64,000 bases of DNA from a virus. Both the position numbers and the translations under genes were made by a program. A model generated the notes under the pieces. It was not told the origin of the DNA, did not search any database, and saw only the letters and a program-made list of their open reading frames with translations. The DNA is taken from positions 64,001-128,000 of the IMG/VR virus record IMGVR_UViG_3300033153_009458. One strand, written 5' to 3'. The first letter of the stretch is position 1, and every line of letters starts with the position of its first letter. Of this stretch, positions 12,626-51,611 are shown one piece after another.

Positions 12626-13735
12626 TTATGGGATTCCTTTTTCCTTACTGCTTTTAATTAATTCTTCCATCATTGACTTAATAATCACTGGATCAATACC
12701 ATCTTGAAAAGTAGCCGTAGTTAAAAAATTTATTATTATATCTGATAATTCTAATCCTTTTTGAATGTCTTGCTCTAATTGATCTTCGTCAATCTCTTCA
12801 ATAAATCCACTTTCATCAAGAATATCAACCCTGTCGTACGAATTTTCAGTGATTGTCTCAAATGTATGGCTTAATAATCCTTGATCTTTACTCTTTAATA
12901 CTATAAATTTTACATAGTTTGACTCACATATGTCAATAGCTTCTGGTAATGAAATATTTTGCGTCTTCGAATTGAAGCCAGAACACGATAATTTTAGTTG
13001 CCCATTTTCTTCATAAAATAATTTAATATGTTTTGGACTCGTTTTGTTTTTAATGTACTTCATTTCGAGATTATCATCTAATAACCAGAACCCTTTGCCT
13101 TGTGAAAAATCACCCCAATTATTTTGATAAGGTGCTCCGAGATACGTAAAATTGTGTCTCGATGACATAGCGTGATAGTGTCCAGAAACCACCTTTTTAT
13201 AGTCCTTAAAAAGCTCATAAGGGCTACCAGATTTCGATAACGTCTTTCCCTGCATCAAGGCACCAACAATCTCGAAATGGCCAGCTAGTAGGTCTACATC
13301 AACAGGTCGGGGTAGTTTCATCGCATCTAAATCTGTTACCCACGGAACGAACCCAATTTTGTGTGGACCTATCCTTAAAATCTTATTTTCAGCGATTGGA
13401 TGGATGTATTTGTAATTTCCCATACTACTAGTCTGAAAATTACACTCGATAGTATTTTTGTAAAATGAATCGTGATTCCCTACAAGACTGTATAAATTCA
13501 CTTCGTTGTCATCGAACCATTGAAAGAATTCAGTTTTTAATGTATGTAACAAGTATAAGTCTATACTGTTTCTATTGTGCACCATATCACCGAGATGTAT
13601 AACATCTTTGATCTTGTGTTTTAAAATATACGGAAAAAAATCTTTTTTAAAATAATCCATTTGCATATTAAAAACCGGTTTTGAAAAGGACCGGCTACCA
13701 AAATGTGTATCACTGATCAGCACTATTTTATTCAT
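12626..13735 (-). CDS. 47: Recombination nuclease subunit (gp47/SbcD-Mre11-like)
   Basis: SDTHFG, GDMVHNR, GNHD, GHFE, SGHYH metallophosphoesterase motifs. Confidence 0.95.
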   Translation of the reverse strand: MNKIVLISDTHFGSRSFSKPVFNMQMDYFKKDFFPYILKHKIKDVIHLGDMVHNRNSIDLYLLHTLKTEFFQWFDDNEVNLYSLVGNHDSFYKNTIECNFQTSSMGNYKYIHPIAENKILRIGPHKIGFVPWVTDLDAMKLPRPVDVDLLAGHFEIVGALMQGKTLSKSGSPYELFKDYKKVVSGHYHAMSSRHNFTYLGAPYQNNWGDFSQGKGFWLLDDNLEMKYIKNKTSPKHIKLFYEENGQLKLSCSGFNSKTQNISLPEAIDICESNYVKFIVLKSKDQGLLSHTFETITENSYDRVDILDESGFIEEIDEDQLEQDIQKGLELSDIIINFLTTATFQDGIDPVIIKSMMEELIKSSKEKGIP

Positions 13736-13747
13736 TTTATTTATTTT

Positions 13748-14212
13748 TTAATATATTAAATAATTTATAACTTTTTCAAGTATTTCTAAAGTTTCAGTGG
13801 ATTTTTCTTTTTCAAAATGGGCTATCGATGTATTACATCTCATACATAACAATCCACGTATAACTATTTTGTCTTTAATATAATGATCATGATCGACAGC
13901 AAAATCATTACCACTGCTACATTTATTTGTTCCACATATAACACATTTATAATCTTGTTTTTTTAATAAAAAATTATAATCTTCTATTGTCATGTCATAT
14001 TGTTTCAAGTTTCTGATTTTATCTACTTTTTTTACTCTTTCTGCATTTTCTTTTTTCCATTTTTTAATTCGTTTAGGATGGCAAATTATACAATTAGAAC
14101 CCTTTGTAGTTTTTTCTGTTTGTCCACACCATTTACATGGTTTTCCATGATATGTTTTTAATCCTTTTTCAATAGCTTCTTGTTTATTTTTATTAAATTT
14201 TTCATTTCTCAT
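13748..14212 (-). mobile_element. Endonuclease VII-type HNH, probably a free-standing homing endonuclease
   Basis: CVICG...VDHDH...IRGLLCMRCN with N-terminal CKWC/CIIC zinc finger. Confidence 0.75.
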
Positions 14213-14802
14213 ATTTTAATTTGATCGGTGTTAGAAGTATGGTCTATATATTCACCGTCTTTGTCACGGTTGCTTTTAACAATATTATTCCAATTTAATT
14301 TTTCAGCGTTAGTCATACTTTCTTTGACTTGCTCAAATTTGTAATCGGCGTATTTTTTCTCTTTATTCAGGAATTGTTTAAAAGCATTGAAGACAACTTG
14401 TGAAAAGTAAGCAAACGCATTATTCGATTTCGTAGGATCGAAATTGTGTGCGTACTTCACACACAAGAACAATGCATCACCTTTCATATCTTCTAGATAG
14501 GTATAGCCCATGAAATTGGGTCTTGAGCCGATATGGTTCACTAATTTCATAAAGCTTTCGGCTACATCATTAGGCATATTAGCAACAGCTTGTTTATATG
14601 CTTCATCCCGGCGAGCTTCTAATTTCTTAATGAACATAGGATCTATTTTCAATAATTCTGCTTTTCTTCCTTTATCTTGTTTTATATTGAAAATTTCTTT
14701 CGAAATAATTTTCATACCCCGAATATCATCTGTCTGTACCCATCGAACTATTTTCTTCGTGAAATCAGCGTTATTGATGTAATGTGGCCTACGTTTTGCC
14801 AT
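14209..14802 (-). CDS. 55: Late-transcription sigma factor (gp55-like)
   Basis: HYINNADF, PNFMGYTYLEDM, KYAHNFD, NAFAYFSQVVFNAF. Confidence 0.93.
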   Translation of the reverse strand: MAKRRPHYINNADFTKKIVRWVQTDDIRGMKIISKEIFNIKQDKGRKAELLKIDPMFIKKLEARRDEAYKQAVANMPNDVAESFMKLVNHIGSRPNFMGYTYLEDMKGDALFLCVKYAHNFDPTKSNNAFAYFSQVVFNAFKQFLNKEKKYADYKFEQVKESMTNAEKLNWNNIVKSNRDKDGEYIDHTSNTDQIKI

Positions 14803-14830
14803 AGTTCTCCAAAAGTGTTGTCATACAATT

Positions 14831-14859
14831 ATTATACCAACAAATAGCACACAAGTCAA
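14831..14859 (-). promoter_or_regulatory. sigma70-type promoter for gene 55
   Basis: TTGACT-17-TATAAT with TGn extension. Confidence 0.75.
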
Positions 14860-14861
14860 CT

Positions 14862-15797
14862 TTATAATATTAAAGGAACAGTTGTTTGAGTTATGTCATC
14901 GTAACCTTCTTCTTTGTAAAATTTCTTACGCTCTTTGTAGTGTTTTAATCCATAATTTAGGTATTTTTTAACTCTTGTATTCTCTATATAAGAGTATTCA
15001 AGATCATCAATAAGATCATAAACAGTCACTTGATCTTTCGAATCATTTATTCTAAGACCACGGCCAATGCTTTGTATGACTTTGATTTTTGATTTGTAAT
15101 TAGCGGCCAGAACAATATTATGGATATTTTTAATACTAACACCTTGTGAAAAAGTACCGTACGACACAACAGAAACAATATTGTCGTTGTTTTCCATCGT
15201 GACCCTGACTTGCTCTCTGTCATCCTTGTGTACATCACCGTCTACGTACAGCACCTTTTTATTGCCTGTTAGTTTCAAAGCTTTTTCGATATTTTTTCCT
15301 TGCACAATCCGAGTGAATAACACAATTGTATTTCCTTTGAGTTTCCCAACAAGCATAGAAATAAACTTATCCCGGTGTTCCATATCGTTGATGTATTCGA
15401 TCTCTTGCATAAAGTTTTTTGAATTTTTTTCAAAATTATCCCTTGCAATTGCCAATGGATGTTTTAGGAATACGTCTTTAATTTTTAAACCAGCAACTCG
15501 TTTCTTTTCTCTTAGCTCTTTATAATTTGTGTATCTCTTTGTTGGACCCATTGCACCAACAATTGAAAACCAATCTAGCGAACGCTCATCAGGGTACGTT
15601 GCACTCAATCCAATTCTATAAAAAGCATTACTACATTTTTTTGATATTGTTTGAATCTCTTTAGCAGTGGCACCGTGGCACTCATCAATCATCAAAGCGT
15701 TGAATTGTTTGAAATAGTCTGGAGTCATTTTTTGCATAGACTGCCACGTAGAAATATAAATTTTTTGTTTTCTTTTAATTAATTTTTTAATTTTCAT
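14862..15797 (-). CDS. uvsW: UvsW SF2 helicase, C-terminal part
   Basis: ISTWQS, IDECH, GLSAT, SYGTFSQGVSI, QSIGRGLR. Confidence 0.92.
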   Translation of the reverse strand: MKIKKLIKRKQKIYISTWQSMQKMTPDYFKQFNALMIDECHGATAKEIQTISKKCSNAFYRIGLSATYPDERSLDWFSIVGAMGPTKRYTNYKELREKKRVAGLKIKDVFLKHPLAIARDNFEKNSKNFMQEIEYINDMEHRDKFISMLVGKLKGNTIVLFTRIVQGKNIEKALKLTGNKKVLYVDGDVHKDDREQVRVTMENNDNIVSVVSYGTFSQGVSIKNIHNIVLAANYKSKIKVIQSIGRGLRINDSKDQVTVYDLIDDLEYSYIENTRVKKYLNYGLKHYKERKKFYKEEGYDDITQTTVPLIL

Positions 15798-16593
15798 ATA
15801 TCCTTTCTATATAACAACCTTTATAATTACCTTTTGGGATCGCTATATTTTTCTTTAAAATAGTGTAAAAATAACTACTTGAAATACCTAAAAATTCATA
15901 TACTTTAAACATTCCATCTGATATATCTAACCGAATTCTATCATCTTTAGTTTTAAGAAAATATGAAAGTTTTTTTCTAGTATAATGATTGTTGCCAGAT
16001 GTTTTAGCGACTTTTTTTGCTATTGATTCATTATTATGCATAGGATTATTAAATTCAAATACATTTGTTCCCCTTTCTTTTCTTGTATTCATAGTTTTTT
16101 TATGAATTTCTTTATTTTTAAATGGGCTATGTTTTTTGAGATGATTACTATGGGCTATTTTTCTTTCTTCAGTCCAAGAATCTTTAATTTTAATACTGTG
16201 TAATTTTCTATTTTTTTCGTAAGAGAAAAATTCTTTCATTTTAACCGAGACTATTTTTGCTCTCTTTTTCTTTAAGTTTTCATATATAACAGAATTTATT
16301 TTATGATATCTTTCATAAGTTGATTTAGATTTCATTGACATTGCTGTAAAAGCACAAAGCATTTTATAGTAAAACGGTGATTTCACAGCCTTTACAAGCA
16401 AAAGATGTGCAATATAATGTTCTCTTGCTGATAATACAATTATATTATCTTTATCATTTGACCCCCCACAAGATTTAGGGATAATATGATGATGTTCTAC
16501 ATAAGTTGATATTAATTTTCTTTCTTTGGATACTAATTCAACATACCATTTTGAATATTTGTTATTTTTTAAAATATTGTGTAATCCATTCAT
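15787..16593 (-). mobile_element. MobE-like HNH homing endonuclease interrupting uvsW
   Basis: EHHHIIPKSCGGSNDKDNIIVLSAREHYIAHLLL; overlaps both uvsW parts. Confidence 0.88.
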
Positions 16594-17314
16594 CTTCTAT
16601 TTCATCTGTTTCTGATAAGTTTTTTGCATATATTATTTTTTTTTCAGTGTTATTTATAACAGTAAGAGAATCATTGCCATGTAATGAAATAGTTTTATTA
16701 TTTTCTAATATAATTTCAATATCTTTTGTTTTATTAAACTTATCTTGTCCACCATAAATCCGGTGACAATTATCATATGGATTAACTAGCCCATATTCCA
16801 TGAAGTCCTGAAACAGCTGATCTACCAAATGAATCGTCGGGACAATGATTAAAATTTTGTGATCGCTAAACGCAATAAAACATGCTATAATATATTGTAT
16901 AAGACTTTTTCCACCGGATGTTGGAACAGTAATGCATAATTTTGTTTTTGATACTGCTTCATAAGCTGCTTGTTCTTGGAATTCGTATAGATCAAATGGT
17001 AATTTAAGATCTTTTATATATTCGTTGAACTCATCTCGATCTACATCCTGTTTATCGTTAAAATCAATATAGATGGAATAATCACCACCAATGGCAAATT
17101 TCTGTAATTCTTTTAATAGACCAATTGGTAAAATATTTTTATGTAAGGCAGACATTTTTCCACTCCATCCCTTTTTGAATGCTGGCATGAATTGGTAATT
17201 GTCTACATAAGCACTAAAGTTTTCTTTAATTTCATTTAGTATTCTAGGATCTGTTTTTATGAGTACACTTGCTTCATCTCGTTTATGCACAGTTATATCA
17301 GATATTTTCTGCAT
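16562..17314 (-). CDS. uvsW: UvsW SF2 helicase, N-terminal part with Hint-like C-terminal extension
   Basis: YQFMPAFKKGWSG, LYEFQ, PTSGGKS Walker A, IIVPTIHLVDQ. Confidence 0.92.
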   Translation of the reverse strand: MQKISDITVHKRDEASVLIKTDPRILNEIKENFSAYVDNYQFMPAFKKGWSGKMSALHKNILPIGLLKELQKFAIGGDYSIYIDFNDKQDVDRDEFNEYIKDLKLPFDLYEFQEQAAYEAVSKTKLCITVPTSGGKSLIQYIIACFIAFSDHKILIIVPTIHLVDQLFQDFMEYGLVNPYDNCHRIYGGQDKFNKTKDIEIILENNKTISLHGNDSLTVINNTEKKIIYAKNLSETDEIEDEWITQYFKK

Positions 17315-17382
17315 TGTTTGACATACATCATTAAATATGATATTATTATTATTATGTTCTTAAATATAAAATATTATTTATG

Positions 17383-17562
17383 TTATTGAAAATTCATTCT
17401 TTTCTTTATGTACTCTCTGTGGTGTTTTTGTAATTCTATTTTAATTCTTTCTTTTTTGTATGGCTTTATTGTATTTTGAATCAATAATTTTAATTCATCA
17501 AGGGTTTTTATATTTTTTAATCTATAATTTATTTTTTGTTTTGTTCGTTTTCTTTTTTTCAT
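17383..17562 (-). CDS. 59-aa basic hypothetical protein (not in track)
   Basis: Manual translation MKKRKRTKQKINYRL...; very AT-rich, no clear SD. Confidence 0.35.
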   Translation of the reverse strand: MKKRKRTKQKINYRLKNIKTLDELKLLIQNTIKPYKKERIKIELQKHHREYIKKRMNFQ

Positions 17563-17617
17563 TATTTTTTAAACTTGTAAATTTATAAGTTTATTTAAAT
17601 CTCGAAGTTGTGCCTTT

Positions 17618-18109
17618 TTATCGGCCTTCTCTCCAATCTCTTTCTTTTTGGTATCTCTGAATTTCCCATTGTTTCTGATTCAAATTATTCACTGCATTTT
17701 CGCAGTACACCATCATAGCTTTCATTTGTTTGTGTAATGTAGATATATATTCATATCTCGGATCAGATTCAATGAACATGTTCATTTCGTCTTTATTGTC
17801 TATTTTGATGTCGTAGTCTTTTTTGTAAAATTCGAAGAGATCCCGACGAATCTTTTGCATATTCTGGTATACGTGGTTTCTTTTAGTCTCGAAGTCTGTC
17901 AATTTGTTAATCCATTTCCCTTTTAGTGATCCTAAATTAGATAAGACTTCACCCATATTAGTTTCATCAAAAGGTGCACAATCCTTTATATATTGCTCTT
18001 TTAGGCTTTCTATTTTCTGGTCTAATGTTTCGACAGATTTTTTTGATTGGTTAGATACTGATTGATACTTGGTATCAAGCTCATTTTCTTTATCTTGAAG
18101 TGTTTTCAT
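17618..18109 (-). CDS. uvsY: UvsY recombination mediator
   Basis: Helical, adjacent to uvsW; C-terminal ...NQKQWEI...WREGR resembles T4 UvsY ...SRGFAI...FEAGK. Confidence 0.75.
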   Translation of the reverse strand: MKTLQDKENELDTKYQSVSNQSKKSVETLDQKIESLKEQYIKDCAPFDETNMGEVLSNLGSLKGKWINKLTDFETKRNHVYQNMQKIRRDLFEFYKKDYDIKIDNKDEMNMFIESDPRYEYISTLHKQMKAMMVYCENAVNNLNQKQWEIQRYQKERDWREGR

Positions 18110-18141
18110 TAGTTTTACCTGTTTATGTGTTTCGTTATTTT

Positions 18142-18176
18142 TATTTATAACAGCAAATCGTCTGCTTTTATAAATA
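18142..18176. promoter_or_regulatory. Divergent pair of late promoters
   Basis: TATAAATA on minus (18142-18149) and plus (18169-18176) strands at the strand switch. Confidence 0.75.
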
Positions 18177-18201
18177 TATTAAACACTACTTTATATAAAC
18201 T

Positions 18202-18576
18202 ATGGATTACGAAATGATATCTTTTGAAGAAATGCTCGAAGAAGCTCACGAGCAAATATTAATAGAAAGGAGAACTGTTCAAAAACTGAAGAAAGTTCTT
18301 GCTTGGTCTAAAAAAATCACTAAATTAGGTGCTAGAAGGAATAGAGCAGCTTTTAAGAGAACACACGGCACATCAGGACAGAAAATTAAGACCAGATCGA
18401 AATCAACTATTCGTAAAATGGCTAGAAATCTTAAGAAAATTTCACGTCGAACAAAACAAAAAAGAAAAACTTCAGTAAGAGTAGGCAAAAATGTTGGACG
18501 GACTATCCGAAATTTGATCGGTAAAGAACGTCAAAAGCAAAGAAACAGAGGCGTTAAGAACATTGAACATCGGTAA
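18202..18576 (+). CDS. Basic protein, possibly gp68-like prohead core protein
   Basis: Acidic N-terminus ending ILIE, then K/R-rich body (RNRAAFKRTHG); late promoter. Confidence 0.45.
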   Translation: MDYEMISFEEMLEEAHEQILIERRTVQKLKKVLAWSKKITKLGARRNRAAFKRTHGTSGQKIKTRSKSTIRKMARNLKKISRRTKQKRKTSVRVGKNVGRTIRNLIGKERQKQRNRGVKNIEHR

Positions 18577-50454: not shown

Positions 50455-51375
50455 GTTGCATTTATAGCTGTTTTTACCATGTCCTTAAAGCTGAAATTCG
50501 TTAGATTTTTTGCTTTGGTTTTATTCCTATTTACTATATCTTGATATTCTGGTGACTTAACGATCTTGATTATATCTTTGTAATCCCTTGATCCTTTTTG
50601 TACTTCTTGCTTTTTGTTTTTCATCCATTGGTAAAACTTCACAACTATATCGTCGAGTCCTTTTTTATGAAGACACGCAATAAACTTACTTGAGTCACCT
50701 TTTGCGTTTACTTTACACGCTTGCATATCTGTTTTTGCGTCTTCTTCGAGCAAGCTATTTTCAAACTCTTCTATAAAATTCATATTTAACCTTTTGGTAA
50801 ATCTGTTTTCATTTTCTTTAGAAGTTTTATTAAATCATCTATTTGTTTTTGTACTACAAACTCTATTGTATTATTACCTTGTTTAATAAATAATTCATCA
50901 GCTTCACCTATTCCAATTTTTGTTAATGGTGAAACTCCTGATAAAACGACATTTTTGGTTTCTAACATATCTTTAAAAGTTTTCATATTGTAAATTTCCT
51001 GTCAGCTGTTTTAAAATTTTTCTTTCGCATAACCGTCTTACCTACTAAATCGAACATCTTTGATCGCCTGTTGTATTCAAAAACAAACGGCATGTTTAAA
51101 TCAGTCATCATATCATTAATAACCGCTTGTGTTTTGTGTGATAATTTAGCTATTTCTTTACCATATTTTCTGTACGATTCCTTAAATAATCGCATCAATT
51201 CAGCAACGGTAATAAGTTGTCTTTCATTTCGTTTATCATTAACCCGCTTTAAAAAATGACCAGTAAAAGCAACATCAATTCCTAAAGTTTGAAAGAGCTT
51301 ATCAGCGTATTTTTCAATACCTTTTAACTCTTGTTGCGATACTTCTTCATTTAAAAATTGCTTGAAAGTTTTCAT
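50451..51375 (-). CDS. Three putative internal head proteins (50451-50783, 50786-50986, 50983-51375)
   Basis: MNFIEEFENSLLEE, MKTFKDMLE, MKTFKQFLNEE. Confidence 0.65.
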
Positions 51376-51611
51376 ATATTTTTCAAATTTACTGATAAAA
51401 TTTTTGACTGAGTTAAAAAACCTGTATCGATTGCAAAACGGATCATATCTTCATCATTGTCTTCAAAAATATCTAAACAAATACGATGTGCAAAATAATG
51501 TCCATCTAAATTACCAAGATTATTAGTATTCCAACCAAAATATGCTTGATGGGTATCTGTAAATTTTTTACCACACCAACGGCACCTTGATTCTTTTCCT
51601 TCGTCTATCAT
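51372..51611 (-). CDS. Small zinc-finger-like protein
   Basis: CRWC...HRIC. Confidence 0.55.
   Translation of the reverse strand: MIDEGKESRCRWCGKKFTDTHQAYFGWNTNNLGNLDGHYFAHRICLDIFEDNDEDMIRFAIDTGFLTQSKILSVNLKNI

Follow-up and report, generated by a model that had tools for sequence, protein, structure and literature searches.

A putative splicing-dead half-intein cassette with an HNH endonuclease gene splits the helicase gene uvsW of an IMG/VR virus

In the present study, we analysed a stretch of 64,000 nucleotides (nt), hereafter the window, which covers positions 64,001 to 128,000 of the 151-kb IMG/VR virus record IMGVR_UViG_3300033153_009458 and in which the gene of the repair helicase UvsW is interrupted. 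Three minus-strand open reading frames (ORFs), each in a different frame, lie at the locus: the N-terminal part of uvsW (N-part), a gene for an HNH homing endonuclease and the C-terminal part of uvsW (C-part). The N-part ends in an extension, here called the tail, and the C-part starts with a much shorter one, the head. The features are as follows, in positions of the window.

16562..17314, minus strand: uvsW N-part ORF, 250 amino acids and stop; UvsW N-terminal domain, Walker A (PTSGGKS) and motif Ia, then the tail
16565..16723, minus strand: tail, residues 198-250 of the N-part (DIEIILENNKTISLHGNDSLTVINNTEKKIIYAKNLSETDEIEDEWITQYFKK); homologous, with good support, to an N-intein over the C-terminal (block-B) half of the latter; TxxH is lost (HGND), and the guanine-cytosine (GC) content is 20%
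16562..16593, minus strand: overlap of N-part end and HNH start, 32 nt; the HNH ATG is read in frame +1 relative to the acidic motif of the tail (GAT GAA)
15787..16593, minus strand: free-standing MobE-like HNH homing endonuclease gene, 268 amino acids; HNH motif intact (EHHHIIPKSCGGSNDKDNIIVLSAREH)
15801-15805: AAGGA, a Shine-Dalgarno-like word near the C-part start
15787..15797, minus strand: overlap of HNH end (..YEN and stop) and C-part start (MKIK..), 11 nt
14862..15797, minus strand: uvsW C-part ORF, 311 amino acids and stop; head, then TWQS, DECH, SAT and Helicase_C motifs IV-VI
15765..15797, minus strand: head, residues 1-11 of the C-part (MKIKKLIKRKQ), with a net charge of about +7 and likely homologous to the strand with which C-inteins begin

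The original prediction had read the locus as three ORFs and had placed the break of uvsW between ...GGQDKFNK and KIYISTWQS, and the ORF calls and domain matches confirmed both. The N-part contains UvsW_N and the first half of the DEAD/ResIII domain and aligns to residues 2-208 of T4 UvsW. The C-part, which is one uninterrupted ORF with a stop codon four codons upstream of its ATG, contains the remaining ResIII domain (TWQS, DECH, SAT) and Helicase_C and resembles the UvsW of many phages at 37-40% identity, starting at residue 16. Taken together, the two halves make up a UvsW helicase of superfamily 2 (SF2; PF21241, PF00270, PF04851, PF00271) with motifs I-VI all present in the alignment. T4 UvsW (1rif/2oca) was matched at E=1e-26 and with a Z of 14.4 in the VIA-align comparison; the result list of the wide VIA-align search was occupied by the helicase domain and is uninformative on the tail. 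The middle ORF encodes a Mob-type HNH homing endonuclease (PF01844; phrog_655 at 5e-37; 34% identity to T4 MobE).

Since the three conserved ORFs overlap by 32 and 11 nt, no room is left for a non-coding intron core, as had been argued before, and no Rfam intron family, and with it no conserved ribozyme core of a group I intron, was found at E<=10 across positions 14000-18500. The arrangement of same-strand halves with a free-standing homing endonuclease gene between them is that of a fractured gene (Dassa et al. 2009); complete split-intein halves, which such fragments carry, were not found on the two parts. The locus also has what defines the nrdA type of Aeromonas phage Aeh1, namely a MobE-like HNH gene between the halves and AT-rich foreign tails at both new ends. 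The GC content of the tail is 20% against 30-36% for most of uvsW, and its DNA is the most AT-rich stop-free 62-codon stretch of the window, which fits foreign cassette DNA.

Taken singly, the tail sequence matched the Pfam family Intein_splicing at E=0.07 only (profile positions 49-92 of 155), and its pairwise comparisons with N-inteins were likewise weak (p=0.019 and 0.19). An exhaustive HMMER search with the N-part returned intact UvsW (about 480-520 amino acids) and two further classes of protein. The first consists of N-fragments of about 320-337 amino acids that end in a complete N-intein after DE/C(H), such as P0002 (Pfam Hint and Intein_splicing). The second consists of dozens of proteins of about 240-268 amino acids, which align over the whole query including the tail. 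At least 38 further cluster representatives of this second class carry the tail, and it is therefore not a chance read-through. The alignment of 39 such tail-bearing N-fragments, to which the family counts given below refer, has the tail consensus xIxLExGxxxxLxGNxxIKxINxxxKxAKDLxExDEIDDxWL.

When the tail profile was compared with the profile of 14 real UvsW N-inteins by hhalign, tail columns 2-42 fell on N-intein columns 54-94 of 102 with a probability of 97% and P=7e-11. The best of 60 column shuffles of the tail scored 18.6 (best P 0.0026) against 53.5 for the real one; with the tail reversed P was 0.077, and for the true tail profile set against that of intact UvsW it was 0.31. In addition, a hidden Markov model (HMM) of the tail found real N-inteins directly, at 1e-5 to 2e-12. 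The resemblance to the block-B region of Hint domains that had been proposed from the sequence was thus borne out, and the derivation of the tail from the block-B half of an N-intein appears well supported. By sequence homology the tail belongs to the HINT (Hedgehog/intein) fold, of which it would form only a part.

Searches without the family profile were negative: a phmmer search of the PDB found no intein, no intein family was among the 25 Pfam families listed for the 39 members, and a six-frame Pfam scan of the phage with PF14890 gave no match. As a control, 149 peptides of low GC content were taken from the window, and an intein family was likewise absent from the 25 families listed for them. 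A search for the tail on longer proteins also gave none, which is weak evidence. We also considered that the tail might be a degenerate duplicate of the next uvsW segment (TWQS...DECH), at which a MAFFT alignment and long tblastn extensions had hinted; this was rejected on pairwise shuffles (p=0.24-0.6) and on the P=0.31 against intact UvsW given above.

The AlphaFold2 (AF2) model of the N-part, made with the alignment of the 39 members, had a mean predicted local distance difference test (pLDDT) of 91.6, with 91-94 over the tail. The predicted tail has strands at residues 199-202, 208-211, 216-221 and 224-229 and a helix at 241-249. Foldseek with this structure returned UvsW and other SF2 helicases, a few poor matches of high root-mean-square deviation (rmsd) and the mini-inteins 2jmz, 5o9i and 5o9j, which were matched over 38-40 residues at an rmsd of 1.4-1.8 A with E-values of about 0.7, not significant alone. 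The tail also has a conserved DDxWL motif and a C-terminal helix that are not seen in real N-inteins.

The chemistry of splicing has been lost from both pieces. The absence of the N-terminal Cys/Ser block, of the TxxH His and of the terminal HN, noted at first for the window, was found across the 39 members. As the tail aligns only to N-intein columns 54-94, block A with Cys or Ser at intein position 1 is absent, and no Cys, Ser or Thr nucleophile is conserved among the 39 at the extein-tail junction. In block B, the G and N of TGNH are kept in 27 and 20 of the 39 members respectively and the T position is variable, while the His position is never His (Glu in 17, Gln in 8, Asp in 7, otherwise Thr, Ala, Val or Leu; the window has HGND). 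On the C-part, blocks F and G, the terminal (H)N and a +1 Cys, Ser or Thr were not found; a head of 11-12 residues runs directly into the native strand xIxxSTWQS, whereas the real UvsW C-intein is 35 amino acids long and ends in VVSN/CH. Because all these elements are absent, splicing is not expected, and the two halves would not be ligated.

The same arrangement was found in other phages. When IMG/VR was scanned for DEIDDxW(L), 37 loci were obtained, in 16 of which the tail is followed by a homologous HNH gene or an HNH remnant and, where the locus reaches far enough, by a C-part of about 300 amino acids. In related loci, reading DEIDDRWL in frame +1 gives the HNH start (MKLTIDGY), and the HNH end (..IKNEN and stop) overlaps the C-part start (..KMKIKKIEHKEP..). 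A TAG closes the ancestral ATG in the window, where translation would start at the following ATG, 12 nt further on. At one locus (L018 2295-2547, minus strand) the HNH gene has decayed, with stops and an internal deletion of about 500 nt, between an intact tail and an intact head; this is a late stage in the life cycle of a homing endonuclease.

At another locus (L033 7491-10216, minus strand) uvsW is in at least three pieces, with a tail-type break at the window's site (site 1), a contiguous real mini-intein at DE/C and a second tail-type break before motif V; the endonuclease is gone from both tail-type breaks. The last uvsW piece of this locus has an apparent one-base frameshift directly after ..IIVAS. 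Six fragments of about 430-460 amino acids, P0009 being among the cases of this kind, end in a tail at a second uvsW site (site 2), which lies in the second RecA domain. In P0124 (516 amino acids, from the HMMER search), the N-extein, the site-1 tail, a short linker (GLGISNVEKIYTK) and the C-extein are fused in cis in one chain, and a second tail stands at its end, at site 2. The tail of the P0124 model is ordered (pLDDT 73-89).

The tail is also found outside uvsW. In L042 (6814-12913, plus strand), a 755-residue N-fragment of DnaE (PolIII alpha) ends in the same half-intein tail (..AKDIIEGDEIDDDWL) and is followed by a 654-residue Vsr-like endonuclease ORF, whose start overlaps DEIDDDWL, and then by the remainder of DnaE. 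A complete N-intein (CREDM...TLDHKF...) stands at the end of the next DnaE fragment. Among the nearest models in the ESM Atlas were viral DnaE, PolB, TerL, RecA-like and NrdA fragments, several with intein domains, which are leads only.

The heads at these junctions are as follows.

uvsW site 1: MKIKKIEHKEP
uvsW, window: MKIKKLIKRKQ
uvsW site 2 (L033): MKYTSKEIKEP
dnaE (L042): MALVKAVRTSTP

For comparison, 38 further loci have real UvsW inteins at DE/CH, either split with a gap of about 0.9 kb, split without a gap or contiguous, and their C-inteins read MKLIKRTEIxKPxxVYNLHIxxDHNYIVEGAVVSN/CH. The original prediction had likened the C-part start MKIKKLIK to the first strand of C-inteins; the sequence is present as written, and the likeness is plausible but weak alone (P=0.024). 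Homology of the head with the C-intein start is likely on this resemblance. The tail is acidic over the 16 residues that precede the Trp (mean charge -3.2), and the heads are mostly basic (+7 in the window). Among the loci examined, L010 (4965-6494, plus strand) has an uninterrupted uvsW that is identical over residues 1-230 to P0002, in which a split intein stands after DEAHN; the two come from the same phage lineage and represent a presence/absence polymorphism of a real intein.

Selection on the tail was examined in eight related loci over the 35 tail codons that lie outside any overlap. The ratio of nonsynonymous to synonymous substitution rates (dN/dS) was 0.07-0.39 for all pairs but one (0.67), compared with 0.07-0.32 for the extein, and mean identity in the alignment of the 39 members was 33% for the tail and 35% for the helicase core. 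These values argue that the tail is under purifying selection. The original prediction had taken the locus for an intermediate state; in this respect it was not supported, since the module is widespread, conserved and recurrent and not a transient. Furthermore, the dS of the tail is below that of the extein, and tail identity tracks HNH identity more closely (rho 0.83) than extein identity (0.63). For these two reasons the cassette seems to move as a single unit. No close relatives of the window were found by megablast against phages, and locus and protein searches with the N-part gave distant relatives only.

On this evidence, we consider it probable that a splicing-dead half-intein cassette splits uvsW and that its tail and head aid the assembly of the two halves. 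The original prediction, which had read the intein remnant as a non-covalent heterodimerisation clasp, is supported in part. The cassette would consist of the half N-intein tail, the HNH homing endonuclease gene and the first strand of a C-intein, placed in a surface loop of the first RecA domain. UvsW would be made as two polypeptides from three overlapping and probably translationally coupled ORFs, with both the stop codon that ends the first half and the start codon of the second coming from the cassette. Judged by its place in the alignment, the tail would correspond to about the last 45 residues of an N-intein, that is to strand beta4 and the globular part of the second C2-related HINT unit, and the head to the first 12 or so residues of a C-intein, that is to the first long strand of that same unit. 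For the tail, the model predicts a small beta domain, which together with the basic head most likely promotes a non-covalent, possibly co-translational, assembly of the halves into a helicase that is presumably active. In that way, the element would bring with it an antidote to the damage that it causes. It would have arisen most simply by an ectopic move in which an endonuclease gene took along the intein-coding DNA directly on its two sides; the remnant is exactly the part that adjoins the endonuclease gene.

Several observations weigh against this proposal. In solved inteins, the charge network of the first C-intein strand is made with beta3, a strand of the first unit (10.1101/546465), and the tail lacks beta3, the normal partner of that strand. 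In Aeh1, the tails on the split NrdA are essential for activity; they are needed for higher assembly and activity but not for formation of the heterodimer (PMC3045599). The profile comparison of the head with C-inteins spans 12 columns, and shuffles score similarly; the head of one locus (L038) is not basic, and the head-like linker of P0124 (residues 264-271) has a pLDDT below 50. Moreover, the last 10 or so tail codons overlap the HNH ORF, and with a tail dS below that of the extein, part of the tail conservation may reflect recent spread of the cassette.

In an alternative explanation, tail and head are functionless leftovers, kept only as physical parts of the endonuclease cassette, since they hold its translation start, the stop of the upstream half and the start of the downstream half, and the halves assemble through the RecA-domain interface alone. 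The HNH ATG and first codons do lie within the conserved acidic tail motif, the HNH end overlaps the head, and L042 has the same junction with a different endonuclease; the low tail dS, the tracking of HNH identity, the dimerisation of Aeh1 halves without tails and the poorly modelled P0124 linker point the same way. We nevertheless regard this alternative as unlikely. Leftovers would hardly show low dN/dS in all but one pair over 35 codons outside the overlap, or a conservation like that of the helicase core across the family. In addition, tail and head are intact where the HNH gene is dead (L018) or gone (L033), the tail remains in frame in the cis-fused P0124, and it is modelled in the window with a pLDDT above 90.

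A role for the tail as a folded domain with another job, in which it would anchor or control the HNH endonuclease, contact DNA or influence the helicase and not dock onto the head, appears slightly less likely again. It would agree with the confident prediction that the tail folds independently, with the DDxWL motif and C-terminal helix that set it apart from real N-inteins, and with the loss of the normal partner strand. Yet the tail persists without any HNH gene, and it is found again beside another endonuclease and on another host protein, which fits a generic role in assembly better than one specific to the helicase or to HNH. Covalent joining of the halves, by unconventional trans-splicing or by an RNA-level intron, is very improbable: although the tail is intein-derived and real trans- and cis-splicing inteins occur in uvsW about 35 codons downstream at DE/CH, none of the 39 members has the position-1 nucleophile, block A, block-B His, blocks F and G or terminal Asn, the head is only 11-12 residues long, and the overlapping ORFs have neither an Rfam intron nor space for one. 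Assembly of the halves with the aid of tail and head hence stays the preferred explanation.

Other features of the phage were also recorded. The gene order in the window (uvsW, gp55-like, an EndoVII-like ORF, gp47) matches that of T4-like cyanophages and of one related contig. The EndoVII-like ORF (13748-14212, minus strand) encodes 154 amino acids with a recombination endonuclease VII domain (PF02945, 1e-16) and lies between the gp55-like (14209-14802) and gp47-like (12626-13735) genes; because these two are adjacent in related phages, it looks like another free-standing endonuclease insertion. Four weaker relatives of the HNH gene occur elsewhere in the phage (window 34932-35084 and 45640-45792, minus strand; G000 51213-51497 and 136488-136589; E 8e-15 to 7e-5). 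One of them has a TAA within the match, and the tail HMM found no tail-like sequence beside any of the four. A T4-like late-promoter word (TATAAATA) lies in the tail coding sequence at 16651-16658 on the minus strand, 58 nt upstream of the HNH ATG; with 16 in the window against 12.6 expected, it is not enriched and is uninformative. Scans for sigma-70 promoters and terminators stayed at chance level.

Homing endonucleases in essential genes usually persist within self-splicing introns or inteins. It is quite possible, though somewhat less likely than not, that the tail, the HNH gene and the head form a portable fracture-and-clasp cassette, which lands in different loops and genes (uvsW sites 1 and 2, dnaE; the Atlas leads TerL, PolB and NrdA), swaps its endonuclease and brings along a minimal module for heterodimerisation, free of splicing, that derives from one C2 unit of the HINT fold. 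If this is true, the cassette would be a third solution beside introns and inteins for neutralising endonuclease insertion in essential genes, and would hold a natural small docking pair. If tail and head do dock, they would represent a natural split intein reduced to its recognition half, with a bearing on the origin and decay of split inteins, on the assembly of fragmented enzymes and on how small tags for non-covalent docking could be designed. In the literature searched, we found no natural half-intein remnant described for genes split by an endonuclease.

Among known systems, the split topoisomerase of T4 (gene 39, mobA, gene 60) is similar in that a Mob-family HNH gene splits an essential enzyme gene, and tail-like extensions have been noted there (PMC3045599). 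However, no similarity to inteins was reported for it, and gene 60 uses translational bypass, whereas the C-part in the window is not interrupted. The naturally split inteins offer another parallel. In the work on the gp41-1 structure, the HINT fold was divided into two C2-related units (10.1101/546465), and in inteins that associate by electrostatic capture and collapse (PMC11766414; 10.1101/546465) the regions said to start fragment recognition resemble the pieces kept here, which flank the natural split site and carry opposite charges. Unlike those inteins, the window has neither the pre-folded first HINT unit nor the last two strands, so the known fold cannot be completed and any docking would need a reduced or altered interface.

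The fractured genes described by Dassa et al. (2009, PMC2677866) share the order of an N-fragment with an intein-derived end, an endonuclease gene and a C-fragment with an intein-derived start, on one strand and in replication and repair genes of phages. Those genes have a complete N-intein half (about 97 amino acids, with Cys1 and TGNH) and a complete C-intein half (35 amino acids, ..VVSN/C) and are expected to splice. In the window, only about residues 54-97 of the former and 1-12 of the latter remain, and the site lies about 35 codons upstream of DE/CH.

The closest case is nrdA-a/mobE/nrdA-b of Aeromonas phage Aeh1 (Friedrich 2007; Crona et al. 2011, PMC3045599), in which a MobE-type HNH gene in an essential gene of DNA metabolism leads to two polypeptides and the insertion has brought AT-rich C- and N-terminal tails of opposite charge at both ends. 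The Aeh1 tails differ from the tail in the window in being shorter and of opposite charge polarity, and comparison of the Aeh1 NrdA tails with the tail and N-intein profiles gave no match. By eye, the NrdA-b head (MIEHERIYEVYEDEEYTTVEIEVD...; L131, NC_005260 40058-43885) is slightly like the block-F strand of C-inteins, a likeness that no profile supports. Crona et al. (2011, PMC3045599) found no database match for the Aeh1 tails and speculated that a degenerate intein might have left them behind. In the window, by contrast, the intein origin can be demonstrated by profile comparison and the tail family is large and spread over several sites and more than one gene, while the role of the tail is deduced from sequence. 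Aeh1 nrdA thus offered a third way, in which tails reassemble a broken protein and an intein origin was only guessed; in the uvsW of the present virus, that origin is visible in the sequence.

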